From assembly GCA_025544715.1 (NCBI GenBank), contig GCA_025544715.1_4109.5: a stretch of DNA of 23,806 nucleotides; one strand, 5' to 3'. The position numbers and the translations under genes are program-made. The notes below the pieces were generated by a model. The model saw only the letters and a program-made list of their open reading frames with translations. It did no database searches and was not told the DNA's origin. This DNA comes from Escherichia coli (lineage in GTDB: Bacteria > Pseudomonadota > Gammaproteobacteria > Enterobacterales > Enterobacteriaceae). Shown here one piece after another: positions 1 to 15,140 of the stretch; position 1 is the stretch's first letter, and each line of letters opens with the position of its first letter.

Positions 1-51
1 GTATAGTACTGAAAGCATTAATCAATGACAGAAAAAAGTTAAAATAATCTA

Positions 52-80
52 TTGACAATATCATCCAGTACTGGCATAAT
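52..80 (+). promoter_or_regulatory. sigma70-type promoter
   Basis: TTGACA (52-57), 17-nt spacer containing AGTACTG, CATAAT (75-80), then conserved ACTTACATCAAG start region. Confidence 0.6.
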
Positions 81-140
81 ACTTACATCAAGACGAGAAC
101 GTCACTAACCCATAGGGTGCACAAATGTAACTGTCTAATA

Positions 141-176
141 TTGATCAAAAAATGATCTGATCAATACTTGATCAAT
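141..176 (+). promoter_or_regulatory. cluster of TTGATCAA palindromes (four GATC sites in about 32 bp)
   Basis: attgatcaaaaaatgatctgatcaatacttgatcaatttg read directly; overlaps -35 of next promoter. Confidence 0.4.
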
Positions 177-195
177 TTGCGTAAAGTAGTATAAT
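168..195 (+). promoter_or_regulatory. candidate sigma70-type promoter
   Basis: TTGATC (168-173), 16-nt spacer, TATAAT (190-195). Confidence 0.45.
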
Positions 196-378
196 TCTAT
201 GCAGTTGGTTAGACGAAAGGTTATGATTAGTAGTGGAAGTGTATAAAAATTTTCATGGTGTATCGTTTCGCACATATGGCAATGAATATGTGGTATCATG
301 TGGATTGGAAAAAGTAAGAACAAGTAATATTATTGTCGCATTACAGTACTATAGTATTTTTATAATGAGGTTAAAATA

Positions 379-636
379 ATGGCTGTAGGATTCACAAAAG
401 ATGGGGCCGAGCAAGACGAGATTAACGCAGTGATTCAGGCCGCTGTTAACCACGCTAGAACGCAAATTAACGCACAAATAGAATCACTGATACATTGCCT
501 CGACTGCGGTGATAAAATCCCTGAGAATCGCCGCCAGGCCGTTAAGGGGTGTAAGTACTGCATAACTTGCCAGGAGGATCATGATAGTATTTTTAAACGT
601 CAACCGCGTAATTGTTGGCATAGATCTATGAGATAA
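379..636 (+). CDS. TraR/DksA-family C4 zinc-finger protein (85 aa)
   Basis: GAGG 8 nt upstream of ATG; paired Cys motifs CLDCGDKIP...CKYCITCQ typical of TraR/DksA zinc fingers. Confidence 0.75.
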   Translation: MAVGFTKDGAEQDEINAVIQAAVNHARTQINAQIESLIHCLDCGDKIPENRRQAVKGCKYCITCQEDHDSIFKRQPRNCWHRSMR

Positions 637-642
637 AAAGTA

Positions 643-670
643 TTGACAGTACTGAAAGATAGTGTATACT
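643..670 (+). promoter_or_regulatory. sigma70-type promoter
   Basis: TTGACA (643-648), 16-nt spacer with AGTACTG, TATACT (665-670). Confidence 0.6.
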
Positions 671-699
671 ATTTTATATCTTAACTGAGGATTGAAATC

Positions 700-1056
700 A
701 TGGGTATTCAACACATCACGCGTACTACTGACAATGGCGAGATCACTGGCTATCAAGTACAGGGCAAAGTAGCACAATTGCAGTACTGGTTTGTAAAACG
801 TGGATTGATTGCACCGGATCTTGATTATGACCGTGTAGCGTTTATTGATTCTCTTTATGTTGATCCTGATAGTCGGGGCAATGGTGAAGGTAACGAATTA
901 ATGAATGCCTTTATTGATGCCGCCGATGATTCAGATTGTATCATTTTAGAATGCGATACGGGAGAAGATAACGCCTTTAATCTTAAAGAATGGTACGAAG
1001 GTTTCGGATTCGAGGTACTGATCGATAGTGAATATCCTATCATGATTTTATCATAG
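700..1056 (+). CDS. small GNAT-like N-acetyltransferase (118 aa)
   Basis: GAGG RBS; VDPDSRGNGEGNELM resembles GNAT motif A (R-x-x-G-x-G) and C-terminal FNLKEWYEGFGF resembles motif B; judged by eye only. Confidence 0.55.
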   Translation: MGIQHITRTTDNGEITGYQVQGKVAQLQYWFVKRGLIAPDLDYDRVAFIDSLYVDPDSRGNGEGNELMNAFIDAADDSDCIILECDTGEDNAFNLKEWYEGFGFEVLIDSEYPIMILS

Positions 1057-1059
1057 TAC

Positions 1060-1088
1060 TTGCATTTAGTTTTCAGTACTGTTATAGT
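1060..1088 (+). promoter_or_regulatory. sigma70-type promoter
   Basis: TTGCAT (1060-1065), 17-nt spacer with AGTACTG, TATAGT (1083-1088), ACTTACATCAAG downstream. Confidence 0.6.
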
Positions 1089-1100
1089 ACTTACATCAAG

Positions 1101-1117
1101 GGGAAACATCTTCCCCT
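1101..1117 (+). other. 5' leader stem-loop (GGGGAA / TTCCCC)
   Basis: 6-bp inverted repeat just downstream of predicted transcription start, upstream of RBS. Confidence 0.5.
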
Positions 1118-1128
1118 ACTAAGAGGAA

Positions 1129-1323
1129 ATGAAAATGGAAAACTTATCAAGTATTTTAGTACAAGATGATTTCGGTAATCCTGGAAGTGCTATCATTGTT
1201 CGGGGTAATAAAGCAACATTTGTTATTGCTGGTGGACCTGTACAGCGTAGCATTAAAAACAATGCCGTTACTATTAATAATGTACGCTATCGCTTAGATA
1301 AAGAATTGATTCATAAACTGTAA
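1129..1323 (+). CDS. hypothetical protein (64 aa)
   Basis: ORF after promoter, hairpin and AAGAGG; in-frame ATG at 1135 is an alternative start. Confidence 0.6.
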   Translation: MKMENLSSILVQDDFGNPGSAIIVRGNKATFVIAGGPVQRSIKNNAVTINNVRYRLDKELIHKL

Positions 1324-1350
1324 TATTAATTTAATAGAGGATAACAATAA

Positions 1351-1674
1351 ATGTACATTCATACTACTATCACAAAGGAAGTCCGTTGCCAGTTCGAAAG
1401 TATTCCGGGCGTATGTTTCATCACTGGTACGTTTTCCCCTGGTGATCGTGATAATCCAGTACTGTTACAATTACGCCATCCATCATGGGATAAAGCATTT
1501 GATCTACCGTTGAATGAATTCGCAACTACTGCTGAAAAGTACATTAAAAATATTCGTGAGAATGATCGACTATTCATTAATGCTTTTAGTGATTCCGCGT
1601 TAAGCGAGATCCACGGCGTATTGGTTGCAATCATGGAATCAATGGAGAAAACTAAATTCAAACAAGGTGAATAA
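1351..1674 (+). CDS. hypothetical protein (107 aa)
   Basis: GAGGA RBS 8-9 nt upstream of ATG. Confidence 0.65.
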   Translation: MYIHTTITKEVRCQFESIPGVCFITGTFSPGDRDNPVLLQLRHPSWDKAFDLPLNEFATTAEKYIKNIRENDRLFINAFSDSALSEIHGVLVAIMESMEKTKFKQGE

Positions 1675-1680
1675 AAACTA

Positions 1681-1709
1681 TTGACAATGTAATCTAGTAC
1701 TGTATAATA
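1681..1709 (+). promoter_or_regulatory. sigma70-type promoter (consensus)
   Basis: TTGACA (1681-1686), 17-nt spacer with AGTACTG, TATAAT (1704-1709). Confidence 0.7.
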
Positions 1710-1720
1710 AGTTACATGAA

Positions 1721-1741
1721 GGGGAGAAAATGATTCTCCCC
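1721..1741 (+). other. 5' leader stem-loop (GGGGAGAA / TTCTCCCC)
   Basis: perfect 8-bp inverted repeat with 5-nt loop between promoter and RBS. Confidence 0.6.
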
Positions 1742-1758
1742 ACTGAGAGGAAAGAAAA

Positions 1759-1971
1759 ATGCAAGGTCAACTAATCGTTCGTAAATGGTCTGATACTAAT
1801 GAAAAACCGTGGGATGTTCAATACATCGGACCGGATGGGGTATCACGTTATCAGCCTGGCGTAACGCATAGTACTGAGCAATTCGCCAACGCTCACCGCG
1901 AACGCCTGTTAGAATCCATGAAACAGGGATACGGTGAAAAATTCATTCAAGATCATTGGCTGAAAGATTAA
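1759..1971 (+). CDS. hypothetical protein (70 aa)
   Basis: promoter, leader hairpin, GAGAGG RBS, ATG. Confidence 0.7.
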   Translation: MQGQLIVRKWSDTNEKPWDVQYIGPDGVSRYQPGVTHSTEQFANAHRERLLESMKQGYGEKFIQDHWLKD

Positions 1972-1988
1972 TATAAGGAGTACAGCTT

Positions 1989-2081
1989 ATGCAAATGAAT
2001 CCGATGATTATTGTTTTAGCTGTACTTATGATCATTCATGCAATAGTAGAAGTATTAAATCAATCAGGAGTAATAAAATGA
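1989..2081 (+). CDS. small hydrophobic peptide (30 aa, MQMNPMIIVLAVLMIIHAIVEVLNQSGVIK)
   Basis: AAGGAG 8 nt upstream of ATG; below ORF-track size cutoff; stop overlaps next start (ATGA). Confidence 0.4.
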   Translation: MQMNPMIIVLAVLMIIHAIVEVLNQSGVIK

Positions 2082-2251
2082 TCCAGGTAGAATTAACAGT
2101 ACTGAAAGATCTGTTTTATCGGTTAGGTACTACTGGCGAGTATCCTAAAAGTGATACCGCAAAACTTTTTGTATCACTCGATTTATGGCAACGCGAACAA
2201 TTAGTAATGTCCTGGCGTAAAGGTAAAGCAGATAGCGAGGTGAAAGCATGA
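2078..2251 (+). CDS. hypothetical small protein (57 aa)
   Basis: translated by hand; ATGA overlap with neighbours on both sides. Confidence 0.45.
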   Translation: MIQVELTVLKDLFYRLGTTGEYPKSDTAKLFVSLDLWQREQLVMSWRKGKADSEVKA

Positions 2252-2397
2252 AAGAATTCTTATTCGAAGTAGTGTTTCAAGGTGTCGGTAGTAACCAACT
2301 GATTCGCTCAAGTGGTTACAATGTTAACCAGGCATGGAATAACATTAAACAAATGTACCCGAACGCTATCACATATCGCAACCCGAAAGAAGTTTAA
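2248..2397 (+). CDS. hypothetical small protein (49 aa)
   Basis: translated by hand; ATGA overlap upstream; ends just before terminator-like hairpin. Confidence 0.45.
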   Translation: MKEFLFEVVFQGVGSNQLIRSSGYNVNQAWNNIKQMYPNAITYRNPKEV

Positions 2398-2411
2398 AAA
2401 GAATTGAAAAA

Positions 2412-2433
2412 GGGATTGACTCCGGTCAGTCCC
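2412..2433 (+). terminator. terminator-like hairpin GGGATTGAC-TCCG-GTCAGTCCC
   Basis: 9-bp stem with one G-U pair and 4-nt loop, preceded by A-run, followed by TTTGCTATTATATA. Confidence 0.5.
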
Positions 2434-2444
2434 TTTGCTATTAT
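2416..2444 (+). promoter_or_regulatory. promoter embedded in hairpin
   Basis: TTGACT (2416-2421), 17-nt spacer, TATTAT (2439-2444). Confidence 0.55.
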
Positions 2445-2535
2445 ATACGCATAGAAACAAATCAGCCCACAGGGTGCATAAATGTATCTATTGTTTGCTG
2501 GTGGCTAGTACTGAAAACTATTTTTAAAAAAGTAC

Positions 2536-2563
2536 TTGCATTGTACTTAGAATCAAGTATAAT
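2536..2563 (+). promoter_or_regulatory. sigma70-type promoter of the AAAAAGTACTTGCA class
   Basis: A-tract, TTGCAT (2536-2541), 16-nt spacer, TATAAT (2558-2563), GTTTTACAT downstream; same cassette at 5262, 6118, 6453, 7961. Confidence 0.6.
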
Positions 2564-2651
2564 GTTTTACATCAGGACGGGGAACGAAACAAGTAACCCC
2601 GTTAAGTAGTCCAGGAGTAAGACATAAGAAAACCTCCCCTGATAAAATAGT

Positions 2652-2680
2652 TTGACAATAGAAAGTAAACGAGTATAATA
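2652..2680 (+). promoter_or_regulatory. sigma70-type promoter (consensus)
   Basis: TTGACA (2652-2657), 17-nt spacer, TATAAT (2675-2680), ACTTACATCAA downstream. Confidence 0.7.
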
Positions 2681-2712
2681 CTTACATCAACCACTGATAA
2701 GGAAACATTAAA

Positions 2713-2988
2713 ATGCGGATTCTACTGACAGCTAACGAAATCGAACAAGTACTGACTACTAACCTGGAAGACTGGAAACGTGAAGCAGATATCCAGGCGG
2801 TTCAATGGCTTAACGATAAGTTAACGCCGGATGACTTAAGCAAGATTGTAGATCCTCAATTCTACGAAGATATTCACGACACCGCGTTAAGCGTCGAGGA
2901 TGTACTTGATAAGCACTACATTGATATTGATTTGCAGGTTTACGGTCGTAAAAACTTTATCACTATTCACGACATTTACAATAATTAA
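2713..2988 (+). CDS. hypothetical protein (91 aa)
   Basis: AAGGA RBS 10 nt upstream of ATG; promoter upstream. Confidence 0.7.
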   Translation: MRILLTANEIEQVLTTNLEDWKREADIQAVQWLNDKLTPDDLSKIVDPQFYEDIHDTALSVEDVLDKHYIDIDLQVYGRKNFITIHDIYNN

Positions 2989-2991
2989 GTA

Positions 2992-3019
2992 TTGACAAAG
3001 TATCTTAGTACTGTATAAT
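2992..3019 (+). promoter_or_regulatory. sigma70-type promoter (consensus)
   Basis: TTGACA (2992-2997), 16-nt spacer with AGTACTG, TATAAT (3014-3019); almost identical to promoter at 5569. Confidence 0.7.
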
Positions 3020-3034
3020 AGTTTACATCAAGGC

Positions 3035-3052
3035 AGGGGGAATGGTTCCCCT
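3035..3052 (+). other. 5' leader stem-loop (AGGGGGA / TTCCCCT)
   Basis: inverted repeat with AATGG loop between promoter and RBS. Confidence 0.55.
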
Positions 3053-3076
3053 CCTAACTAAAAGAGAGAAATTAAA

Positions 3077-3400
3077 ATGGCTATGATCCTGTCCCAGAAA
3101 GTAGAACTGAAAATTGTAACCTCCTTTGACATTAAAGTGAATCGCTGGACTGATCGGAACGGTAACACTTACCACTCTTGCTACGTGTCCGCATTGATTG
3201 GTGATCGCTGGGAGGATTTAGGACACGAAACATTTACATACGGTTACGGCACTCAAGGCGAATACACGGGCTTGGAGATCATTAAAGAAACCGTTATAGG
3301 TTTCAACCCGAAAGAAAACGTTATTCACCGCATCGAGGAAGAGATCAACAAAGAAATAACAGTTCGCTACTACGATGTAAAACGTAAGAAAGATATGTAA
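3077..3400 (+). CDS. hypothetical protein (107 aa)
   Basis: promoter, leader hairpin, purine-rich RBS, ATG. Confidence 0.7.
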   Translation: MAMILSQKVELKIVTSFDIKVNRWTDRNGNTYHSCYVSALIGDRWEDLGHETFTYGYGTQGEYTGLEIIKETVIGFNPKENVIHRIEEEINKEITVRYYDVKRKKDM

Positions 3401-3422
3401 TAGAATCCATTTAAAGTACTAT

Positions 3423-3451
3423 TTGACATTGCCCAGATAGTACTTTATAAT
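3423..3451 (+). promoter_or_regulatory. sigma70-type promoter (consensus)
   Basis: TTGACA (3423-3428), 17-nt spacer with AGTACT, TATAAT (3446-3451). Confidence 0.7.
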
Positions 3452-3495
3452 AGACTCTAACTTGTAGTACTAACTTAACTAATAGGATATATACC

Positions 3496-3891
3496 ATGAT
3501 TACTAAATTCTACGCTACCCGTGAAGCTGCCCGTATTGTTGCACGCGAGGAAGGAGAAGCATTTAAAGACATGGGCAAAGATGCACCGAAAGGCCAACGC
3601 TGGGCCGTACAGTTCAAAGAAATCTCTGATATTGTGAATTCACCTGAGCCAGTACTAACAGCAGAAGAACAAAAACAAGCTGAAGAACTGGCGGCAATTC
3701 TTAACGCTCAAGATGAATTCGTCGCGGGTACTGATATCCAGGTTGTAGTAAATTCGAATGCATGGACTCACGCGGATCACCTGGCAAACCTGAAGCGTCC
3801 AAGTGAACTGATTCGCAACCAAAAAGAGATCCGTCATGACCGTAAGGGAAACCGTGTTACCGTATACAGTAAACGCCGCCAGGTTATCTAA
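3496..3891 (+). CDS. hypothetical protein (131 aa)
   Basis: AGGA RBS; consensus promoter upstream; followed by strong terminator. Confidence 0.7.
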   Translation: MITKFYATREAARIVAREEGEAFKDMGKDAPKGQRWAVQFKEISDIVNSPEPVLTAEEQKQAEELAAILNAQDEFVAGTDIQVVVNSNAWTHADHLANLKRPSELIRNQKEIRHDRKGNRVTVYSKRRQVI

Positions 3892-3913
3892 TAACTTGCA
3901 GTACTAACAACAC

Positions 3914-3938
3914 GGCGGGATCAGTTCCCGCCTTTTTT
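3914..3938 (+). terminator. rho-independent terminator
   Basis: GGCGGGA-TCAGT-TCCCGCC 7-bp GC-rich stem followed by TTTTTT. Confidence 0.8.
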
Positions 3939-3953
3939 ATAGGATAAACTAAA

Positions 3954-4208
3954 ATGATGAAGGTACAACTATCTAAAGATAATATCTTGCGGGTACACTA
4001 TAAAGCACCACAGAGAATCATCACAAAGGCCGTACAGCTTGCTAATGAGTTTATTAATGGTAGTCTATTACCCAGGAAGTTAAGCAACGGGAAACTACGT
4101 GTTATCGATGTAGACACTAACAACAGAATAGTAATTGAGAATACTGGAAAGATAAACCTTTATGAGCATCAACAGTATAATAAGAAAATAAAACTAATAT
4201 CACGTTGA
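3954..4208 (+). CDS. hypothetical protein (84 aa)
   Basis: AGGA RBS then ATG; lies directly after terminator, so expression may rely on read-through. Confidence 0.6.
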   Translation: MMKVQLSKDNILRVHYKAPQRIITKAVQLANEFINGSLLPRKLSNGKLRVIDVDTNNRIVIENTGKINLYEHQQYNKKIKLISR

Positions 4209-4233
4209 CAGTACTCAAATGTTTTAGTACTAT
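4205..4233 (+). promoter_or_regulatory. candidate sigma70-type promoter
   Basis: TTGACA (4205-4210) overlapping upstream stop codon, 17-nt spacer with two AGTACT, TACTAT (4228-4233). Confidence 0.5.
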
Positions 4234-4262
4234 GTATCTATACCAACACGGGGGAAAACAAA

Positions 4263-4505
4263 ATGATTACTTTAGAAAAACGTATCAAAGAAACTACATC
4301 GCTGGTGGAACTGTTAACTGTACTGAAATGCCGTACTACTCGGTTTAGTACACCGGACTTTATTAATATGGTTGATGTTAACGGTCGTTATCGCATTGCA
4401 GTAGAACAAGGAACAGCGAAAGTATTCAGTACTAAAAACACTAAGGAAGTGATTCACGCTGTAAGTGTTAAAAAAGTAGTTGCAATTGATAGTAAAGTAC
4501 TGTAA
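4263..4505 (+). CDS. hypothetical protein (80 aa)
   Basis: GGGGGA RBS then ATG. Confidence 0.6.
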   Translation: MITLEKRIKETTSLVELLTVLKCRTTRFSTPDFINMVDVNGRYRIAVEQGTAKVFSTKNTKEVIHAVSVKKVVAIDSKVL

Positions 4506-4536
4506 GATAGTTACATTAACTCAAGGAGAACATGCA

Positions 4537-5121
4537 ATGCGTCAATATACTAAATTCATCCGGTCCCTGTCAGAAATGGAAACTAATAAAGAGATCCTTT
4601 CAGCTTGTCGGTTAGCTGGTCTGGAAATCATCGGGGCCGGATCATCCCGTATAGTATTCGCTTTAAATGATCGGTTAGTGATTAAGGTCGCTAATTGTGA
4701 TGCGGGTGTAGAACAAAATGAAACTGAATGTAAGGTATGGAATTTTTTAGACTATGACCGCCCTCAGTTGAAACAGTTCTTTGCTAAGGTGCATATGCAT
4801 TTAAGCGATCCTGATAATATGTTTATTGTTATGGATCGTTTGAGTACTGCAAGCAAAGGCAGTGTAAAGCACGTTAACGCGTGCAACGAATTAAAGTACA
4901 ATATTAAACGTAATGCCATTGAACGCCAGCACCGCTTTGCTGATGCATTACAACACGTTGATGATACCTTATCAACCCTAACGTTAAGAGATATCAGAAA
5001 ACAGAACATCGGCCAGGATCGCAACGGCCTTATTAAAGTACTTGATTACGGTTTAACCCGCAATATCTGGAATCAGTACTATAAAAAGCGTGATGTAAAA
5101 GCCGTAACTATAACACGATAA
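4537..5121 (+). CDS. minimal protein-kinase-like protein (194 aa)
   Basis: AGGAGA RBS 7 nt upstream of ATG 4537 (ORF track extends to 4480). Gly-rich loop IGAGSSRIVF, then VIKV lysine, catalytic-loop-like DIRKQNIG (D-x-K-x-x-N) and DFG-like LDYG. Confidence 0.55.
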   Translation: MRQYTKFIRSLSEMETNKEILSACRLAGLEIIGAGSSRIVFALNDRLVIKVANCDAGVEQNETECKVWNFLDYDRPQLKQFFAKVHMHLSDPDNMFIVMDRLSTASKGSVKHVNACNELKYNIKRNAIERQHRFADALQHVDDTLSTLTLRDIRKQNIGQDRNGLIKVLDYGLTRNIWNQYYKKRDVKAVTITR

Positions 5122-5135
5122 AAAAGATTAAAAAT

Positions 5136-5157
5136 GGGATTGACTTCGGTCAGTCCC
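5136..5157 (+). terminator. terminator-like hairpin GGGATTGAC-TTCG-GTCAGTCCC
   Basis: 9-bp stem, UUCG tetraloop, U-containing tail; directly after stop of kinase-like gene. Confidence 0.5.
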
Positions 5158-5168
5158 TTTGCTATTAT
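5140..5168 (+). promoter_or_regulatory. promoter embedded in hairpin
   Basis: TTGACT, 17-nt spacer, TATTAT (5163-5168). Confidence 0.55.
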
Positions 5169-5261
5169 ATATTCATTGAGAGATAGCTCACTGACCCACA
5201 GGGTGCAGAAGTGTATCTATTATATAAGTATTCAGTACTGAAAACTATTTTTAAAAAGTAC

Positions 5262-5290
5262 TTGCAAACTATCTCAAATCGCGTATAATG
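5262..5290 (+). promoter_or_regulatory. sigma70-type promoter of the AAAAAGTACTTGCA class
   Basis: TTGCAA (5262-5267), 17-nt spacer, TATAAT (5285-5290). Confidence 0.6.
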
Positions 5291-5301
5291 TTTTATATCG
5301 A

Positions 5302-5323
5302 GAGGGGGAAATGGTTCTCCCTG
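5302..5323 (+). other. 5' leader stem-loop (GGGGGAA / TTCTCCC)
   Basis: inverted repeat with AATGG loop; the loop ATG is the spurious ORF-track start at 5311. Confidence 0.55.
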
Positions 5324-5343
5324 GTACATTAAGGAATAAAATC

Positions 5344-5565
5344 ATGACTACAATGACTTGCATTCACGCTTCAAACCTGCTTAATGATGCGGCCTTTAAT
5401 GTTGAAACAGAATATCAATGTTATCGGGATGAAAATAAAAAAGTTTTTGTAGTTGATAATAATGGTTTCCATATTGAATTGCAATCCGGTTTCACTGGCA
5501 TTGATGGTAAATCAGTATGGGGCGTACAGGACGATAAAGGCACATATCATTTTAAACGTAATTAA
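5344..5565 (+). CDS. hypothetical protein (73 aa)
   Basis: start moved from 5311 (hairpin loop) to ATG 5344, 8 nt after AAGGA. Confidence 0.6.
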   Translation: MTTMTCIHASNLLNDAAFNVETEYQCYRDENKKVFVVDNNGFHIELQSGFTGIDGKSVWGVQDDKGTYHFKRN

Positions 5566-5568
5566 GTA

Positions 5569-5596
5569 TTGACAAAGTATATCAGTACTGTATAAT
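5569..5596 (+). promoter_or_regulatory. sigma70-type promoter (consensus)
   Basis: TTGACAAAGTAT-ATCAGTACTG-TATAATAGTTTACATCAAGG, near-identical to 2992-3033. Confidence 0.7.
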
Positions 5597-5608
5597 AGTT
5601 TACATCAA

Positions 5609-5627
5609 GGGGAGAATAGTTCTCCCC
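5609..5627 (+). other. 5' leader stem-loop (GGGGAGAA / TTCTCCCC)
   Basis: perfect 8-bp inverted repeat, loop TAG. Confidence 0.6.
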
Positions 5628-5649
5628 GATACTAAAAGGAAACAAAATT

Positions 5650-5922
5650 ATGTCTAGCTACTCCGCTACTATGATCATTAAAGATATGAACGGTAATCCT
5701 ACTTCTGCTGGTGGATCATTTGGAAACATTAACTTAGATGGTCGGTTATCAATTGAATCAGCCATCAATGCAGCGAAAGAAGTTTTTAAGAATGAATGTA
5801 CTGTAAGCAAGCTGGATTATATGGGCTTCGCTATCGAAAAAACTAATCGTTTTGTGGACTACAAAAAACCACTGATGATTGATACTAACCTGAAAGCGAA
5901 CGAAGTGGAATACTTATTATGA
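5650..5922 (+). CDS. hypothetical protein (90 aa)
   Basis: AAGGA RBS then ATG. Confidence 0.65.
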   Translation: MSSYSATMIIKDMNGNPTSAGGSFGNINLDGRLSIESAINAAKEVFKNECTVSKLDYMGFAIEKTNRFVDYKKPLMIDTNLKANEVEYLL

Positions 5923-6110
5923 CAGTTGAAGAAGTTAAAAAAGTACTGGCAGTACTACGCTATCATAATCATTGCAAGGTTAAGAATGATCCTGATTATC
6001 TTGATTCATCCCTGGAAGAGGATACACTACAAGCAATAAGCCATATGCAAAAAATGCTTAAGCGTATGACTGAAAAGAATAGACCGGACTATATCGGAAA
6101 TAAAATTTAA
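5919..6110 (+). CDS. hypothetical protein (63 aa)
   Basis: ATGA overlap with upstream stop, suggesting translational coupling. Confidence 0.55.
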   Translation: MTVEEVKKVLAVLRYHNHCKVKNDPDYLDSSLEEDTLQAISHMQKMLKRMTEKNRPDYIGNKI

Positions 6111-6117
6111 AAAGTAC

Positions 6118-6145
6118 TTGCATTGTAGTTAGATTAACGTATAAT
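6118..6145 (+). promoter_or_regulatory. sigma70-type promoter of the AAAAAGTACTTGCA class
   Basis: TTGCAT (6118-6123), 16-nt spacer, TATAAT (6140-6145). Confidence 0.6.
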
Positions 6146-6157
6146 GTTTTACATAGA

Positions 6158-6178
6158 GCGGGGGAATAGTTCTCCCGC
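6158..6178 (+). other. 5' leader stem-loop (GCGGGGGAA / TTCTCCCGC)
   Basis: 9-bp stem with one G-U pair; same hairpin repeated at 7132-7152. Confidence 0.6.
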
Positions 6179-6196
6179 CAGTCCAGGAGATACACC

Positions 6197-6463
6197 ATGA
6201 ACACTATCGAAATCACTATCAATGCTCACGTATACGACAACGTAGTACTGCAAACTACTATGACCGCTCACGATACCAGTACTTTGCGGAATACCGTTGT
6301 AAGTGCTGTATGTGCTGCAATCGGTGATGTAGCCCTGGAAAATGCAGAACACATCAACAACGGTTTCACTATGTGCAAGCGTGATAACGCAAAACATATC
6401 ATCGTAGAAGGTTACGGCGGTGTAGAATATAACCTTTATATGAAAAAAGTACTTGCATCGTAA
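6197..6463 (+). CDS. hypothetical protein (88 aa)
   Basis: CCAGGAG RBS then ATG. Confidence 0.65.
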   Translation: MNTIEITINAHVYDNVVLQTTMTAHDTSTLRNTVVSAVCAAIGDVALENAEHINNGFTMCKRDNAKHIIVEGYGGVEYNLYMKKVLAS

Positions 6464-6480
6464 TTAAAACAAAGTATAAT
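6453..6480 (+). promoter_or_regulatory. sigma70-type promoter overlapping end of upstream CDS
   Basis: AAAAAGTACTTGCAT with TTGCAT at 6453-6458, 16-nt spacer, TATAAT (6475-6480). Confidence 0.55.
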
Positions 6481-6490
6481 GTTTTGCATA

Positions 6491-6509
6491 GGGGGAGATA
6501 TCCTCCCCC
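6491..6509 (+). other. 5' leader stem-loop (GGGGGAG / CTCCCCC)
   Basis: perfect 7-bp inverted repeat, loop ATATC. Confidence 0.6.
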
Positions 6510-6528
6510 ACTAATAAGGAGTACTAAA

Positions 6529-6753
6529 ATGGCTAATCATGATGACCTGATTCGGGAAGTAGCTAACCTGGCGGCAGAAAAGAAATCATTCGATTCTATC
6601 TATAACACCGCTCACCGTGATTCAGTACTGGCATCAACGCAAGATCAAAAAGATGAACTGATCGCCACCTATCATGAAGCATGGAAGTATTACCGCCAAT
6701 GGGAGAAAGAAGAAAGTGAGTCTACCATTGACGGCCTCAATAATCTAATCTAA
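6529..6753 (+). CDS. hypothetical protein (74 aa)
   Basis: ORF-track start 6484 is a TTG upstream of the hairpin; ATG 6529 follows AAGGAG RBS. Confidence 0.65.
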   Translation: MANHDDLIREVANLAAEKKSFDSIYNTAHRDSVLASTQDQKDELIATYHEAWKYYRQWEKEESESTIDGLNNLI

Positions 6754-6771
6754 AGTTTTATTTCAGTACTA

Positions 6772-6800
6772 TTGACAATACTGGATAGTACTGATATGAT
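6772..6800 (+). promoter_or_regulatory. sigma70-type promoter
   Basis: TTGACA (6772-6777), 17-nt spacer with AGTACTG, TATGAT (6795-6800). Confidence 0.55.
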
Positions 6801-6827
6801 AACTTTACTATCTAAAGGGGAAACATA

Positions 6828-7085
6828 ATGGAACAGTTCACACAATATCGGGTAAATCCTCAAGCTATGGCCTATGTAGAAGACCATAAAACATTACCAG
6901 TACTGCAACCAGTTAAAGGTCATATCTATCGTGCAATGTCATGGAGTAACGCCCAGGATGGATATACTACCGCCGCCGTGGGTATGTACTGCGGGAATGG
7001 TGAATGGTTTGATCCTAGTAATCCGGTAGCCATTGACAGTACTGAAAAAATGAAATGGGCCGACTACATCGAAGATATTTCATAA
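6828..7085 (+). CDS. hypothetical protein (85 aa)
   Basis: AAAGGGGA RBS then ATG. Confidence 0.65.
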   Translation: MEQFTQYRVNPQAMAYVEDHKTLPVLQPVKGHIYRAMSWSNAQDGYTTAAVGMYCGNGEWFDPSNPVAIDSTEKMKWADYIEDIS

Positions 7086-7091
7086 AACTAT

Positions 7092-7119
7092 TTGACAGTA
7101 CTAACCAGTAATGTATAAT
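7092..7119 (+). promoter_or_regulatory. sigma70-type promoter
   Basis: TTGACA (7092-7097), 16-nt spacer with AGTACT, TATAAT (7114-7119), GTTTTACATAGAG downstream. Confidence 0.65.
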
Positions 7120-7131
7120 GTTTTACATAGA

Positions 7132-7152
7132 GCGGGGGAATAGTTCTCCCGC
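7132..7152 (+). other. 5' leader stem-loop (GCGGGGGAA / TTCTCCCGC)
   Basis: identical to hairpin at 6158-6178. Confidence 0.6.
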
Positions 7153-7174
7153 CAATAGTTTGGAGTAAAACATT

Positions 7175-7375
7175 ATGTCTATCGCTATCGCCCTGGTTGA
7201 AGTACTGAAAGAAGCTAAAGCCAACCTTATCGATGTACAGATTAAGGAATTGCAAAATGGTTTAATCGGCTGTACTTGTACCGCTGGTGGAGCGGCAGAC
7301 TATCGGGAATTCGAATCACTTGAATCGATGGTCCGTTATCTTACCATGATCGTAGAAGATTGGAGAATCATCTAA
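7175..7375 (+). CDS. hypothetical protein (66 aa)
   Basis: GGAG RBS then ATG. Confidence 0.6.
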   Translation: MSIAIALVEVLKEAKANLIDVQIKELQNGLIGCTCTAGGAADYREFESLESMVRYLTMIVEDWRII

Positions 7376-7393
7376 CAAAAAAGAATAAAAAAA

Positions 7394-7415
7394 GGGATTG
7401 ACTCCGGTCAGTCCC
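7394..7415 (+). terminator. terminator-like hairpin GGGATTGAC-TCCG-GTCAGTCCC
   Basis: same hairpin as 2412-2433. Confidence 0.5.
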
Positions 7416-7426
7416 TTTGCTATTAT
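7398..7426 (+). promoter_or_regulatory. promoter embedded in hairpin
   Basis: TTGACT, 17-nt spacer, TATTAT (7421-7426). Confidence 0.55.
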
Positions 7427-7538
7427 ATACGCATAGACAAAAACTAGCCCACTGGGTGCAGGAGTGTATCCAAAATATATAGTTAATAACGGTGAGTAAC
7501 TATTTGCTGGTGGAGTGAAAACTATTAATAAAAAACTA

Positions 7539-7567
7539 TTGACAAAGTATATCAGTACTGCAATAAT
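7539..7567 (+). promoter_or_regulatory. candidate sigma70-type promoter
   Basis: TTGACAAAGTATATCAGTACTG then AATAAT; weaker -10 than sibling promoter at 5569. Confidence 0.5.
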
Positions 7568-7620
7568 GTATCTCGTAGGGCGGCAATGGTGCGACGGCCC
7601 ACAAAGTTAGGAGTAACATC

Positions 7621-7953
7621 ATGTCTACATCAATCGCTATCGTTAAAGCTTTCATCCGTACCAATGTTTCTTCTGTATTCATCGACGGTCTGGATCGGGA
7701 AGTAGAATACTCAATCATTATCGCACAGACTGCAAACGGTGCTCGGTACATCCTGAATGATAGTGAAGCAAATCACTACTACTTCACTAAAGCTACTGGC
7801 TTTAAACGCATCGATGCTGACGTAGTATACGCTAAGATGAATAAGCTGGTAGACAAGATTAACGCTAAAGGTACTATAGATTTACAGTACTGGAACGAAA
7901 CCGATCCAGAATACGGATCTCACCGCTACCTGAATCCAGGAATTAAAATGTAA
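7621..7953 (+). CDS. hypothetical protein (110 aa)
   Basis: TTAGGAG RBS then ATG; GC-rich leader hairpin upstream. Confidence 0.7.
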   Translation: MSTSIAIVKAFIRTNVSSVFIDGLDREVEYSIIIAQTANGARYILNDSEANHYYFTKATGFKRIDADVVYAKMNKLVDKINAKGTIDLQYWNETDPEYGSHRYLNPGIKM

Positions 7954-7960
7954 AAAGTAC

Positions 7961-7988
7961 TTGCATAGTACTTAGAATCAAGTATAAT
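7961..7988 (+). promoter_or_regulatory. sigma70-type promoter of the AAAAAGTACTTGCA class
   Basis: about 45 bp identical to promoter at 2527-2570. Confidence 0.6.
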
Positions 7989-8000
7989 GTTTTACATAGA

Positions 8001-8022
8001 GAGGGAGAAATGGTTCTCCCTC
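8001..8022 (+). other. 5' leader stem-loop (GAGGGAGAA / TTCTCCCTC)
   Basis: perfect 9-bp inverted repeat with ATGG loop; loop ATG is the spurious ORF-track start 8010. Confidence 0.6.
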
Positions 8023-8042
8023 CTAAATTAAGGAGTTTTATC

Positions 8043-8444
8043 ATGACCTTCTCAATCAATTCCTTCGCTGACGTTTTAGTACTGGCACGGACTTTCGGTA
8101 AAGATGCACTGGAGTACGCTGTAAGTAATGGCACTATCCAACCGGAACAATGCCGCATCATTGGAAACTGCAAACGTTGGGCGGTATCCAATACTATTGC
8201 ACTGGAAAACTTCAACGATGGCAACAATGAATATTCTGTTGATGTAGTATTCGAAGCCGTTGATCTCGGCGGTATCTATAACACTAACTTGAATGATGTG
8301 CGTATCGTTCGCACGGGGTTCGGTGCTTATGATGTATCTATCCGTGAAGCTATGGACAAGGGATACATTAGCAAGGACTTACTTGCTCACATCATGCAGC
8401 TGTGGACGGAACGTAACGAAGCACGTACTATCTTAGGGCTGTAA
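8043..8444 (+). CDS. hypothetical protein (133 aa)
   Basis: start moved from 8010 to ATG 8043, which follows AAGGAG RBS. Confidence 0.65.
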   Translation: MTFSINSFADVLVLARTFGKDALEYAVSNGTIQPEQCRIIGNCKRWAVSNTIALENFNDGNNEYSVDVVFEAVDLGGIYNTNLNDVRIVRTGFGAYDVSIREAMDKGYISKDLLAHIMQLWTERNEARTILGL

Positions 8445-8468
8445 GCAATACACATCACCAAACATCAT

Positions 8469-8488
8469 AGGCCGCTCTCTAGCGGCCT
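8469..8488 (+). other. GC-rich palindrome AGGCCGCT-CTCT-AGCGGCCT
   Basis: 8-bp perfect inverted repeat in AT-rich context; no U-run, so not a classic terminator. Confidence 0.35.
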
Positions 8489-8512
8489 TAACTATATCAG
8501 GAGGGCATACAT

Positions 8513-8722
8513 ATGTTCTATACCGTATACAGCGTTCTAGGTACTATTGCAGGCGTACATGATAACGTCAATGATGCTATGCGTACAGTACTGCAACAGG
8601 TTCCACTAAAGCCTAAGACTGTTAAGCAGATGACAGCACGACTAACCAGGGCGACGGATGGCGTGGAAGTATGGCAGGACTACGGGGATACACAGATAAT
8701 CGTTAGCGTAACGAAGGATTAA
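8513..8722 (+). CDS. hypothetical protein (69 aa)
   Basis: AGGAGG RBS then ATG. Confidence 0.6.
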   Translation: MFYTVYSVLGTIAGVHDNVNDAMRTVLQQVPLKPKTVKQMTARLTRATDGVEVWQDYGDTQIIVSVTKD

Positions 8723-8750
8723 TGCGTAAAGGGATCTAGTACTGATTCAG

Positions 8751-8816
8751 AAAAAAGTCAAGGCGTTTTTAAAATTATGCGTTAAAAAAATGCATAGGTA
8801 ATCCCTTGACTTTTTT
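8751..8816 (+). other. 13-bp perfect inverted repeat flanking a 40-bp spacer; possible bidirectional terminator or operator
   Basis: AAAAAAGTCAAGG (8751-8763) and CCTTGACTTTTTT (8804-8816) are exact reverse complements; inner TATGC/GCATA pair. Confidence 0.35.
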
Positions 8817-8913
8817 GAAATAAAAGGGATTGGACTATGGCAAAATGCGTAGGGGGCTAAAGGGCGGGTAACCTTAGCGACTTCGATAAAGGGGTATTAC
8901 GAATAAAATGTTA

Positions 8914-8941
8914 TTGACTTTTTATATGAATCGTATAAAAT
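8914..8941 (+). promoter_or_regulatory. candidate promoter for the paralog array
   Basis: TTGACT (8914-8919), 16-nt spacer, TAAAAT (8936-8941). Confidence 0.5.
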
Positions 8942-8971
8942 ATGATTGATATTAATTTTAAGGGAGTCCCT

Positions 8972-9169
8972 ATGCATATTTTAACTCAAGCAGAACACCA
9001 CGAAAGACTTATCAATAACATGGCTATGATAATGTATAAGTCACATGAACGTGGTATGTCCTATAAGCGTGAATTAGTTATGGCACTATTCATTGGGACT
9101 AACTTTCAGGAAAGGTATGTCAACGATTGGATTTGGTATTTAATTGAAGATATAACGAGTAAACTATGA
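8972..9169 (+). CDS. family-1 paralog 1 (LGTNYQ-motif small protein)
   Basis: AAGGGAG RBS then ATG 8972 (ORF-track start 8942 is upstream of the RBS); C-terminal LFIGTNFQERYV...IEDITSKL. Confidence 0.65.
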   Translation: MHILTQAEHHERLINNMAMIMYKSHERGMSYKRELVMALFIGTNFQERYVNDWIWYLIEDITSKL

Positions 9170-9366
9170 AAATGCGTAAATTAACCGAAAAAGAATATCA
9201 AGCACTGTTACGTAAAAACTACACAAAGATTTATAATACAGACTCACACGTAGAAAGAATGGAGTTATACCTTTTGATTACATTGGGAACTAACTATCAG
9301 GATGCATGGGTAACGAAATATGTGGATACATTGAAAAATAAAACATTGTCCACGAGGAAACAATGA
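9166..9366 (+). CDS. family-1 paralog 2
   Basis: ATGA overlap; ITLGTNYQDAWV motif. Confidence 0.7.
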   Translation: MKMRKLTEKEYQALLRKNYTKIYNTDSHVERMELYLLITLGTNYQDAWVTKYVDTLKNKTLSTRKQ

Positions 9367-9572
9367 AAACTATAACACGAACCCAATCATTCGGACTTAT
9401 CTTGAAATACATGGACTTAATGGTGGATATCAGCAAAGACCTGCCTAAAACTGAAATTGAAGTTGCAAGAGCAGAGATCCGCATGTTGGCTGTACTGAAC
9501 ACAAACCATCAGGAAGATTATGTTGAAGAATGGATTCATTTTTTAATAGAAGATATTAAGAGTAAATTATGA
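9363..9572 (+). CDS. family-1 paralog 3
   Basis: ATGA overlap; AVLNTNHQEDYV...IEDIKSKL. Confidence 0.7.
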   Translation: MKTITRTQSFGLILKYMDLMVDISKDLPKTEIEVARAEIRMLAVLNTNHQEDYVEEWIHFLIEDIKSKL

Positions 9573-9784
9573 TTATTATAGAAAACTCATATCAATATAC
9601 TGAACGCATTGCTGCCAGGCAACTTGAAATCCTCATAATATACGAAGAGACTTCTGATTTAAACTTAGCTGAGGTATTGGAAAATGAAATACTTTTGGGT
9701 GCATTCTTGGGAACTGACTATCAGGAGTATTATGAGCAAAAGTATTTGTCATCTCTTGAGAAATACATCAGGAGCAAATTATGA
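9569..9784 (+). CDS. family-1 paralog 4
   Basis: ATGA overlap; AFLGTDYQEYY motif. Confidence 0.7.
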   Translation: MIIIENSYQYTERIAARQLEILIIYEETSDLNLAEVLENEILLGAFLGTDYQEYYEQKYLSSLEKYIRSKL

Positions 9785-9993
9785 TTTTTTTAACACCTGA
9801 AGAATATAAGAAACGTTTTAATTCTGTCCAGACTGAAATATTACTTATATACCTTTCAAATGCAGACCTTAACTTATCAAGGGCAATGGAGAAGGATTTA
9901 CTTATGGGTGCATTTTTGGATACAGACTTTCAGGAGTATTATGTAGGGAAATACTTAATTGAACTTCAGAACTACATTAAGAGTAAACTATGA
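9781..9993 (+). CDS. family-1 paralog 5
   Basis: ATGA overlap; AFLDTDFQEYYV motif. Confidence 0.7.
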   Translation: MIFLTPEEYKKRFNSVQTEILLIYLSNADLNLSRAMEKDLLMGAFLDTDFQEYYVGKYLIELQNYIKSKL

Positions 9994-10208
9994 AACATTT
10001 AAGTAATATAGAGAAGAATAAAATTATCATAGCTGCAATAAACAAATATTTTACACTTCAACAAAAAGAATGTTTATCTATAAGGGAACACAGAATAAAC
10101 ACCACCGATGTACGCATGATGGCTGTACTGGGGACTAACTTCCAAGAAGGCTATGTTCATGAGCACATCGTTGCACTCACTAATTACATAATGGACAAAT
10201 GTAAATGA
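9990..10208 (+). CDS. family-1 paralog 6
   Basis: ATGA overlap; AVLGTNFQEGYV motif. Confidence 0.7.
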   Translation: MKHLSNIEKNKIIIAAINKYFTLQQKECLSIREHRINTTDVRMMAVLGTNFQEGYVHEHIVALTNYIMDKCK

Positions 10209-10417
10209 AACGTCTTAGCAGCAGAGAATATTCTGCTATATTACATAAAGCTTTACCTGAGTTACAAAACATCGAGACGACCATCCCTGAGCCAACGCGA
10301 GGTGTACTGTTTACGGATTGTATGTTATTACACTTCATGGGAACTAATCACCAAGAATCTATAGTATCATCTCTCATCAACGCACTTAAACTTGAAATAA
10401 GAGACAAATGTAAATGA
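10205..10417 (+). CDS. family-1 paralog 7
   Basis: ATGA overlap; HFMGTNHQESIV motif. Confidence 0.7.
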   Translation: MKRLSSREYSAILHKALPELQNIETTIPEPTRGVLFTDCMLLHFMGTNHQESIVSSLINALKLEIRDKCK

Positions 10418-10671
10418 AACACTTGACAGACGATGAATATTCACTTAGAATTCGAAAGCTCACCCCAGAAGCAAGAGTAATCTACGATGACGATGCACTT
10501 TCATGGGTAGAGATGAAAGTTAAAGTTAATGAGCTATGGTTGCTGTACTTTCTGGGGACTAACTATCAAGAGAAATATTGCACCGATTACATTGAACAAC
10601 TAATGGAACTTATACAGGAAAAACTAAATGATCGAATTGTGGAAAAATATGAAAACTTTATCAAGCACTGA
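10414..10671 (+). CDS. family-1 paralog 8 with C-terminal extension
   Basis: ATGA overlap; YFLGTNYQEKY motif; usual junction stop is missing, giving a 13-aa extension overlapping the next gene. Confidence 0.65.
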   Translation: MKHLTDDEYSLRIRKLTPEARVIYDDDALSWVEMKVKVNELWLLYFLGTNYQEKYCTDYIEQLMELIQEKLNDRIVEKYENFIKH

Positions 10672-10900
10672 GTATCAAACTGCCCTATTCTCTTTACTAA
10701 ACACCCTTCGCAAGAACAATGAACTTTATCCTTCCCCTGAGAATGATGTAGTTAATGGAGACGTGCTCCTTCTTAAATTCATTGGAACTGATAAACAAGA
10801 TACCTTCACTGATCGTTATATCAATGCACTAAGAAACCTTGTAGCATATAAAACCCGCAAGGCCCAAAGAGAATGGAAGAGACAATGCGACAAAGACTAA
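10628..10900 (+). CDS. family-1 paralog 9
   Basis: KFIGTDKQDTF motif; family-like N-terminus begins at in-frame ATG 10649, so the true start may be 10649. Confidence 0.6.
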   Translation: MIELWKNMKTLSSTEYQTALFSLLNTLRKNNELYPSPENDVVNGDVLLLKFIGTDKQDTFTDRYINALRNLVAYKTRKAQREWKRQCDKD

Positions 10901-12011: not shown

Positions 12012-12040
12012 TATTGAAAATAAATGCGAGGATAATGAAC

Positions 12041-15059: not shown

Positions 15060-15082
15060 GAGTACTGATAGTACAAATGTTC

Positions 15083-15111
15083 TTGACTGTACTTTTCATT
15101 ACTGATATAGT
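15083..15111 (+). promoter_or_regulatory. candidate sigma70-type promoter
   Basis: TTGACT (15083-15088), 17-nt spacer, TATAGT (15106-15111). Confidence 0.5.
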
Positions 15112-15140
15112 GCACCAACGTTAATCATAGGGTACAGATT

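Follow-up and report, generated by a model that had tools for sequence, protein, structure and literature searches.

The DNA analysed here, called the window, is a stretch of 23,806 nucleotides from an Escherichia coli assembly (GCA_025544715.1, contig GCA_025544715.1_4109.5). Megablast assigns it to Asteriusvirus, the genus of the 121Q/PBECO4-like jumbo coliphages with genomes of about 350 kb, and phage CRJP21 is the closest match at about 95% identity. The subject of this work is the hexamer AGTACT, a palindrome which is far more abundant than expected in the window and throughout the CRJP21 genome, and which takes fixed positions in early promoters. CRJP21 (OQ708376.1) was used whole as the closest complete genome. 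Its unique part is 346 kb, and its record ends in an exact direct terminal repeat (DTR) of 20,152 bp, a size that agrees with the repeats of 20.7 and 21.0 kb reported for Sharanji and fEgEco12 (PMC11895373, PMC13070987). Window positions 4181-10209 align to CRJP21 15460-21486, and by this alignment the repeat of the window's own phage would end at about position 8874. Most of the 24 genes of the repeat part have their own sigma-70-type promoter and a hairpin in the 5' untranslated region. Beyond the repeat lie two families of tandem paralogous genes and two long stretches without AGTACT (Table 1).

The window holds 70 copies of AGTACT, against 6.06 +/- 2.21 (maximum 14) in dinucleotide-preserving shuffles. 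Fifty-three of them lie within positions 1-8750, more than the roughly 40 that the first-pass annotation had estimated by eye for the first 8.7 kb when it called the hexamer strongly over-represented. Markov models of order 0, 1 and 2 predict 2.8, 2.7 and 8.1 copies for the same region; at orders 3 and 4 the expectation rises to 22 and 44 because these models absorb the motif itself (GTAC occurs 93 times, AGTAC 60 times and GTACT 68 times). AGTACT ranks first among all hexamers of the region, where the next palindrome has only 10 copies, and the ratio of observed to expected copies stays far from 1. It does not approach 1 when codon usage is taken into account either: the 6,420 nt of coding DNA contain 24 sites, against 5.8 +/- 2.1 (maximum 13) in 2000 synonymous-codon shuffles that keep the proteins. 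The other 29 sites of the region are spread over some 2.4 kb of non-coding DNA. Val-Leu, a dipeptide that GTA-CTN can encode, has twice its expected frequency. The dense run of sites stops at 8743, adjoining the inferred end of the DTR. The range of 1-8000 originally given for the enrichment is too narrow: the dense run extends past it, and further clusters follow downstream; no site is found in 8744-13512 or in 15610-23548.

The unique genome of CRJP21 contains 893 AGTACT sites where 99 are expected (z about 80), which puts the hexamer at the top of all 4096; the next most enriched palindrome reaches only 1.5 times its expectation, and many palindromes are absent. Coding DNA holds 745 of the 893 sites (83%), against 180 +/- 12 in a pooled synonymous shuffle or 213 in a within-gene shuffle, and this whole-genome count rules out a phenomenon of promoters only. 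All three reading frames are enriched (378, 139 and 228 sites against 106, 21 and 53 expected), and the dipeptides that can contain the motif, Val-Leu, Ser-Thr and Gln-Tyr, are in excess while their reversed forms are not. By within-gene shuffles the ratio of observed to expected sites is 3.0-4.4 in every region of the genome, across early, middle and late genes and with the late structural genes included, apart from the 20-35.5-kb stretch, which holds both motif-free tracts and has a ratio of 1.8. The ratio is 3.1-3.7 in all gene-length classes, and the sites have no positional bias inside genes. Their spacing is nearly exponential with a mean of 388 bp and no periodicity, which rules out a genome-wide arrangement of paired or periodic sites; the 20-bp pairing described below is confined to promoters. 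Selection on the DNA itself holds the density of AGTACT at about 9-fold over composition and 3.5-4-fold over the expectation that takes codons and proteins into account.

It is scarcely credible that these numbers are an artefact of composition, codon usage, dipeptides or promoter duplication, or the product of a repair-driven conversion bias of the very-short-patch kind. Many near-identical paralogous promoters in the DTR do inflate the intergenic count, and GTA, ACT and CTG are preferred codons. The Markov models and the pooled and within-gene synonymous shuffles nevertheless reject composition, codons and dipeptides as the source, in the window as well as in CRJP21, and the dipeptides are themselves skewed toward creating the motif. 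A conversion drive predicts the opposite of what is seen among the one-mismatch neighbours of AGTACT: eight of the nine neighbour pairs have observed/expected ratios of 1.16-2.2, only AGGACT/AGTCCT is low (0.5), and the transition neighbours are not depleted. The neighbour excess is what one expects as the halo left by decay of a selected motif. The same excess of AGTACT is also found in five genomes from four other genera, although the proteins of the shared region of about 50 kb are only about 60% identical where measured.

The promoters in positions 1-8900 were scanned without reference to the motif, as TTGnnn followed after 16 to 18 nt by a TATAAT-like hexamer. Twenty-one were found, and 15 of these contain at least one AGTACT. 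When the start of AGTACT is measured relative to the first base of the -10 hexamer, the sites fall into three registers. Eight are in register -7/-8 (AGTACTGTATAAT), which corresponds to -19 to -14 in standard numbering, and end 1-2 nt before the -10. Six are in register -27/-28 (AGTACTTGCA), or -39 to -34, with their last T as the first T of the -35 hexamer, and three are in register -16/-17 (TTGACAGTACT), where they overlap the 3' end of the -35. The -27/-28 and -7/-8 registers are spaced exactly 20 bp, and most promoters of the window retain one of the two sites; that at 1055-1091 retains both. Of the 29 intergenic sites, 18 are in promoter cores, where the density is 23 per kb; the remaining intergenic DNA has 6.5 per kb (p = 7e-4). 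The first-pass annotation had described a fixed place in most promoter spacers, directly upstream of the -10 or directly after TTGACA, and had proposed either a functional promoter-proximal site or a genome protected by modification. Fixed registers are indeed present, but at several places, and the -27/-28 register had been missed. AGTACT is a non-random promoter-proximal element with registers kept in other genera, whereas the enrichment as a whole is no promoter phenomenon, given the share of sites in coding DNA.

Table 1. Positions of the AGTACT clusters, promoter types, genes and other elements in the window
Feature	Position	Strand	Remarks
Right-hand part of the DTR of about 20 kb (end predicted)	1..8874	+	From CRJP21 alignment; 24 small early genes, all on the + strand
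Dense AGTACT run	5..8743		53 sites, 6 per kb (24 coding, 29 intergenic)
AGTACT over 3' end of -35 (TTGACAGTACT)	643..670	+	Same type at 4205-4233, 7092-7119
Two-site promoter AGTACT(1055)-TTGCAT...AGTACT(1075)	1055..1091	+	Sites 20 bp apart, then -10; third site at 1086; layout as in Muenster and XbC2
TTGACA-16-TATAAT	1681..1708	+	AGTACT (1696) ends 1 nt before -10; same type at 2992-3019, 5569-5596, 7539-7567, 52-80
AAAAAGTACTTGCAT-16-TATAAT	2531..2563	+	AGTACT over 5' edge of -35; same type at 5257-5289, 6113-6145, 6448-6480, 7956-7988
Two-site promoter AGTACT-AT-TTGACA-N10-AGTACT-T-TATAAT	3415..3451	+	Similar one at 6765-6800
DksA/TraR zinc-finger protein	379-636	+	In the DTR
GNAT acetyltransferase	700-1056	+	In the DTR
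ParE-like/RelE-superfamily toxin-fold protein	3954-4208	+	Domain search
Protein kinase	4537-5121	+	In the DTR
Chi sites (GCTGGTGG)	1228, 2497, 4301, 5707, 7283, 7506	+	Six sites; 0.18 expected
Hairpins past early promoters (examples)	1100-1117, 1725-1745, 3032-3052, 5609-5627, 6157-6177, 6491-6508, 7131-7152, 7999-8020		G/C-clamped, GGGGAGAAnnnTTCTCCCC type
Four-fold repeated unit	40-215, 2395-2570, 5122-5297, 7377-7580		Promoter inside terminator-like hairpin
First AGTACT-free stretch	8874..13411	+	Inside the LGTNYQE array; absence not significant alone (expected 1.2-2.3)
Tandem family 1	8942-14725 and 15746-16012		About 27 genes, 66-96 aa; LGTNYQE motif; PHROG 4148
AGTACT island	13513..15609		13 sites, 5.7 per kb; distal part of the LGTNYQE gene array
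Tandem family 2	14715-22633		About 13 genes, 100-207 aa; EEYFQxSLV motif
Tract without any ACT on the sense strand	15607..23479	+	7,872 nt, about 20 genes
AGTACT density back to normal	23549..23766		4 sites in 220 nt

The promoter architecture is also conserved in the terminal repeat of phage Muenster, where at least 21 promoters have the form AAAAGTACTTGACA-N10-AGTACTGTATAAT with the sites exactly 20 bp apart. AGTACT is present in 44 of the 62 promoter-like sites of this repeat, and 25 have both copies. The promoters of the Xanthomonas phage XbC2 have the same two-site layout, and the -7/-8 and -27/-28 registers recur in three genera. An exact scan for AGTACTTG-N12-AGTACTNTATAAT in 2.9 million IMG/VR contigs returned 33 loci. 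Contigs of 345-380 kb and fragments rich in AGTACT and free of GCGC account for most of them. Some six short contigs have a single match each, contain GCGC and reach only about one AGTACT per kb; these may belong to other phages.

Nearly all early promoters have a G/C-clamped hairpin about 10 nt past the likely start site, in a position upstream of the ribosome-binding site. These hairpins are probably 5' stabilisers or regulatory stem-loops, and in Muenster the apex of the hairpins in the 5' untranslated regions is AGTACT itself. The early region also contains a unit repeated four times, in which the -35 (TTGACT) of a promoter with the -10 TATTAT lies inside a terminator-like hairpin, GGGATTGACTCCGGTCAGTCCC-TTT. 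A conserved block, CCCAC(A/T)GGGTGCA..TGTAT, follows about 45 nt after this promoter, and then comes the next promoter. The unit, which has no match in Rfam, may be a short non-coding transcript; hairpin-embedded promoters of this kind are also present in XbC2.

The distribution of the excess among phages was determined on samples of 20-50 kb per genome, the count for Muenster referring to its terminal repeat only. Six further genomes of four other genera are enriched 7-33-fold: RaK2 (Alcyoneusvirus; 119 sites against 12 expected), GAP32 (Mimasvirus; 114 against 14), CBB (Mimasvirus; 112 against 16), fHe-Yen9-04 (Eneladusvirus; 111 against 13), XbC2 (Mimasvirus; 214 against 14) and Muenster (157 against 4.8). 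AGTACT is the top hexamer in all enriched samples except a 10-kb stretch of Muenster beyond its terminal repeat. The more distant Pseudomonas relative PA5oct has 3 sites where 14.3 are expected and the phi92-like coliphage PD06 none where 15.3 are expected, in agreement with the initial remark that phages usually avoid this palindrome. A 50-kb sample of E. coli K-12 contains 3 sites (0.06 per kb), and phage DNA has 40-100 times as many AGTACT sites per kb as the host. Because a Xanthomonas phage is enriched while the coliphage PD06 has no AGTACT, the excess is a trait of the RaK2-like clade and not of the host.

Within the genus the individual sites are conserved. Of the 70 window sites, 66 are intact in CRJP21, whereas hexamer positions in general are intact in 75% of cases outside these sites (p = 3e-5). 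From genus to genus the majority of sites change position at a kept density: orthologues with about 60% amino-acid identity have 4-13 sites at shared positions per genome pair, against about 0.1 expected, and these amount to 8-24% of the sites of each genome, the remainder having moved.

A second feature of sequence content goes along with the AGTACT excess across the clade. The tetranucleotide GCGC is absent from the window (0 against 19.9 +/- 3.9 expected) and from the genome of CRJP21 (0 against 177), which is also without GGTACC, CGTACG, CTCGAG and many other palindromes. GCGC is likewise absent in the RaK2, GAP32, CBB, fHe-Yen9-04, Muenster and XbC2 loci and normal in PA5oct, PD06 and E. 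coli; its density in the host is about 7 per kb.

The phylogenetic pattern bears on two further ideas, a host factor that binds AGTACT and a promoter element intrinsic to RNA polymerase, both of which are very improbable. The candidate factor is SlmA, whose consensus is GTGAGTACTCAC, with AGTACT as its central six bases and the outer GT..AC required, and the sites do lie in strong sigma-70 promoters. Nevertheless, the trait follows phage phylogeny, a Xanthomonas phage included, and is absent from the coliphage PD06, and E. coli DNA is poor in sites. The flanks are also wrong: GTnAGTACTnAC occurs once among the 893 sites (about 3 expected from flank frequencies), the G...C pair of GAGTACTC is the rarest of all flank pairs with 4 copies, and the phage sites lack the outer GTG/CAC of SlmA and are flanked by C...G instead. 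SlmA or any other host factor was rejected on these grounds of distribution and flanks. An extended -10 requires TG at -15/-14, one base before the -10, while in AGTACTGTATAAT the TG directly abuts TATAAT; the scan showed no extended -10 TG for 12 of 12 promoters, those with AGTACTG-TATAAT included. The excess in the coding DNA of late genes is left unexplained by a host factor and by a promoter element alike.

The flanks of AGTACT carry a weak symmetric preference, [C>A>T]AGTACT[G>A>T]: the base at -1 is C in 43% of the sites and that at +1 is G in 46%, with nothing further out. This symmetry points to recognition of double-stranded DNA by a reader with two-fold symmetry rather than to an RNA signal. 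Our tentative reading of the sequence data is that AGTACT is a clade-specific selected palindrome which may be the binding site of a phage-encoded symmetric DNA-binding protein gating the early promoters. A dimer of this protein would bind AGTACT. As the two sites of a pair lie on either side of the -35, with one of them next to the -10, its occupancy would block RNA polymerase at all early promoters together, and the outcome would be early shut-off or a timing switch. The pairs spaced by 20 bp are on roughly one face of the helix and could be bound co-operatively, and the approximately 900 scattered sites would concentrate the same protein on phage DNA. Three distinct overlaps with core promoter elements make steric occlusion likelier than activation, which needs one precise geometry, and promoters so close to consensus would need shut-off rather than help. 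A palindrome at fixed promoter positions, here -7/-8, -27/-28 and -16/-17, is a feature of the operators of global repressors.

Several observations weigh against such a gating protein. At 6 bp the site is shorter than is usual for a dimeric repressor of the helix-turn-helix type, and its length is more in line with restriction and modification enzymes. The operators of global repressors are confined to regulatory regions, whereas 745 of the 893 sites of CRJP21 are coding with a uniform excess, and a share of 83% is far beyond the need of a promoter regulator. The shared registers may derive in part from common descent, many of the promoters being near-identical copies. A Pfam search of 22 of the 24 terminal-repeat proteins, with the rest of the genome outside the screen, found no DNA-binding fold; the matches among those 22 are the DksA/TraR zinc finger, GNAT, ParE-like, kinase and DUF7247 domains and a sub-threshold DUF7217. 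Finally, two methyltransferases are conserved in the clade, and the read-out could be modification rather than binding.

In the main alternative, built on this last point, AGTACT is the target of an orphan methyltransferase of the clade, which would protect the roughly 900 ScaI-type sites from host restriction and tune the early promoters by the methylation state of virion versus new DNA. We consider this possible but somewhat unlikely. CRJP21 encodes a Dam-family enzyme (PF05869, 59509-60030) and a C5 enzyme (PF00145, 278049-278909), and the Dam-family gene with its cytidylyltransferase neighbour is also present in XbC2. An N6-adenine enzyme of the Dam family is the likelier candidate because AGTACT has two adenines per strand, although phage Dam-family enzymes are usually specific for GATC. 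A 6-bp palindrome is the classic recognition format of type II systems, and since other phages purge AGTACT, 900 kept copies suggest protection. Protection accounts for tolerance, however, and not for a nine-fold excess or for fixed promoter registers. As for the C5 enzyme, its closest homologue outside the clade, 51% identical and encoded by the phi92-like PD06, goes with zero AGTACT, and the association of this enzyme with the motif was set aside as uninformative or negative. The DNA of RaK2 has been reported to be methylated, with two methyltransferases, but the methylation described is in CpG context and does not fit AGTACT (PMC3622015). A precedent exists in HIP1, a highly iterated cyanobacterial palindrome, internal sequences of which are methylated by orphan methyltransferases (PMC4390886, PMC5861425). 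Ten restriction enzymes, ScaI not among them, cut the DNA of fEgEco12 as predicted (PMC13070987), and global hypermodification is therefore unlikely. The product names in the CRJP21 record (OQ708376.1) appear displaced by about one gene: the label 'methylase' stands on 58950-59492, whereas the Dam-family domain is in 59509-60030, and the label 'portal protein' stands on a 344-aa open reading frame adjoining one of 716 aa.

The even spread of the sites invites comparison with the tags by which DNA is recognised as self, such as Chi, DNA uptake sequences and the FtsK-orienting polar sequences (KOPS). AGTACT would here be an orientation-free tag read by a nuclease, recombination complex or translocase of the phage or host, and promoters would carry it since non-coding DNA is free to do so. 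Like the known tags, AGTACT is densely and evenly spread (uniform, near-exponential spacing, one site per 388 bp), its positions turn over at a kept density, and the contrast between self and non-self is large, with 40-100 times more sites per kb in phage than in host DNA. GCGC, frequent in the host, is wholly purged from the same clade, and Chi sites cluster in the same terminal repeat. The known tags are asymmetric, 8-12 nt long and served by known machines, while AGTACT is palindromic and has a placement in promoters. A tag leaves unexplained the exact -7/-8 and -27/-28 registers and the 3.5-fold higher density by which promoter cores exceed the rest of the intergenic DNA, and this explanation is clearly unlikely. 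No polarity of the Chi kind was found, AGTACT being palindromic with symmetric flanks and AGTACA being without genome-wide polarity. The six Chi sites of the window are all in one orientation and all in the terminal-repeat part. In CRJP21 the 20-kb repeat contains 9 forward Chi sites, and the whole genome contains 18 forward and 7 reverse where about 1 is expected; their orientation would suit action on RecBCD entering from the right genome end.

Two AGTACT-free stretches of 5.2 and 7.6 kb are the only ones in CRJP21, and both fall in the window. They are also without GCGC, are conserved genus-wide and coincide with the tandem paralogous gene arrays. The first contains 8 copies of the variant TGTACT, where 1.2 are expected. 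In the second, AGTACT is missing because the trinucleotide ACT is wholly banned from the sense strand. About 50 ACT would be expected there from local dinucleotides, and about 190 at the density found elsewhere in the window, where ACT occurs every 41 nt or so and the longest other gap measures 254 nt. The purge extends to all three frames: the threonine codon ACT is used 0 times in 114, and ACA, ACC and ACG are freely used. The reverse complement AGT occurs at its expected frequency, so the constraint is strand-specific. CRJP21 27771-35270, 93% identical, has the same ACT-free tract of 7.5 kb, which is the extreme outlier when all 64 trinucleotides are compared across the genome (score 136; the next one scores 16). 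AGTACA is retained in the tract, with 38 copies, every one on the + strand, where 3.7 are expected. This retention indicates two separate forces, one favouring the motif and one excluding ACT. AGTACA also switches strand, with 8 copies on the - strand at 9491-12437 and the 38 on the + strand at 15732-23346, and points away from the 13.4-15.7-kb island on both sides. This polarity is local and is found nowhere else in the genome, which rules out a polarity of the replication type.

The ACT-free tract possibly encodes transcripts built to resist an ACU-directed endoribonuclease, by analogy with ACA-less mRNAs and MazF. In the table consulted from a survey of E. coli toxins, no K-12 toxin is specific for ACU alone (ChpB is given as U^AC or AC[UGC], and several toxins are poorly defined). 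The idea may be extended to the motif as a whole, AGUACU being a processing or decay site at which an endoribonuclease, possibly the early RelE/ParE-fold protein, would cut read-through transcripts between cistrons. The strand-specific ban is in keeping with this, as is the presence of the ParE_like/RelE-superfamily protein in the repeat, the Muenster counterpart of which is annotated as YafQ-like; the motif caps the Muenster leader hairpins, and with tandem promoters and few terminators the promoter DNA is also transcribed. An RNA signal, however, has no need of a symmetric motif with symmetric flanks, and nothing in RNA would call for registers fixed with respect to the -35 and -10. Late structural genes are equally enriched, ACT is neither generally avoided nor favoured elsewhere (6688 ACT against 7069 AGT), and the AGTACA kept inside the ACT-free tract shows that the two pressures can be separated. 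An RNA site as the origin of the AGTACT excess is thus quite improbable.

Kinase homologues are also located in the terminal repeats of other genera, and the terminal repeat of Muenster encodes, in addition, a protein with the N-terminal (oligomerisation) domain of H-NS. The terminal repeat of the window contains no Rfam family and no tRNA. Both tandem families beyond the repeat are genus-specific at the DNA level, and Pfam and PHROGs gave no functional assignment for the genes of the motif-free arrays.

HIP1 (GCGATCGC) is the closest analogue of AGTACT. Both are short palindromes, hyper-abundant genome-wide in and outside genes, selected beyond codon usage, and clade traits in genomes with orphan methyltransferases; the function of HIP1 has been unresolved for decades (PMC4390886, PMC5861425). 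The features of this type found for AGTACT are the excess over composition, the excess over codons and proteins, and a distribution as a clade trait under purifying selection. AGTACT differs in length (6 bp against 8 bp) and in degree of enrichment (9-fold against 15-300-fold), and it has no periodicity. It is, further, viral, in a setting where palindromes are normally purged, and has an additional position-specific layer in early promoters; the methyltransferases of its clade are candidate partners. ScaI-type sites, the same hexamer, are avoided by unrelated phages and are here enriched nine-fold instead.

The promoter layer resembles the global-repressor operators of IncP plasmids, where the KorA site lies over the -10 and the class I KorB site just upstream of the -35. 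These, too, are short palindromes at fixed positions that flank or overlap core elements in many strong sigma-70 promoters of a single replicon, and they permit co-ordinated repression. They differ in being 12-13 bp long and about a dozen in number, they are not known to be enriched in coding DNA, and their binding proteins are known. In T5 and SPO1 a long terminal repeat is packed with small host-takeover genes behind strong host-type promoters, and the SPO1 phage protein TF1 prefers early-promoter sites, its recognition depending on hydroxymethyluracil DNA. Neither phage shares sequence with the AGTACT phages, and neither is known to have an iterated palindrome throughout its genome. In the papers searched there is no mention of the motif in the AGTACT-rich phages, and the published promoter lists of CBB are without it. 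As far as could be found, AGTACT is the first iterated palindrome of the HIP1 type to be described in a virus.

A broader and rather unlikely interpretation is that sequence content as such separates self from host in the RaK2-like phages. It would combine a clade-specific reader of the orientation-free AGTACT tag built into the early promoters, the GCGC purge (GCGC perhaps being the target of a phage nuclease) and a strand-specific activity against ACT/ACU escaped only by the 7.9-kb block of about 20 genes, and would amount to motif-based genome identity and temporal control, a role played in T4 by base modification.

Phage genomes are the textbook case of palindrome avoidance, and for one hexamer a clade of 350-kb jumbo phages reverses it. 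About 900 copies are kept at the expense of codon choice and even of amino-acid sequence. The motif offers experimental handles in the form of a 6-bp bait for pull-downs (for example, with CAGTACTG oligonucleotides), a ScaI modification test and a compact promoter architecture, and the phages are a tractable viral model for the HIP1 problem. Sequence rich in AGTACT and free of GCGC is a k-mer signature by which the clade can be recognised in metagenomes. Other activities directed by sequence during infection are suggested by the ACT-free block and by the purge of GCGC, and the maintenance of AGTACT implies a sequence-specific reader, either a binding protein or a methyltransferase, with a central part in the biology of these phages.

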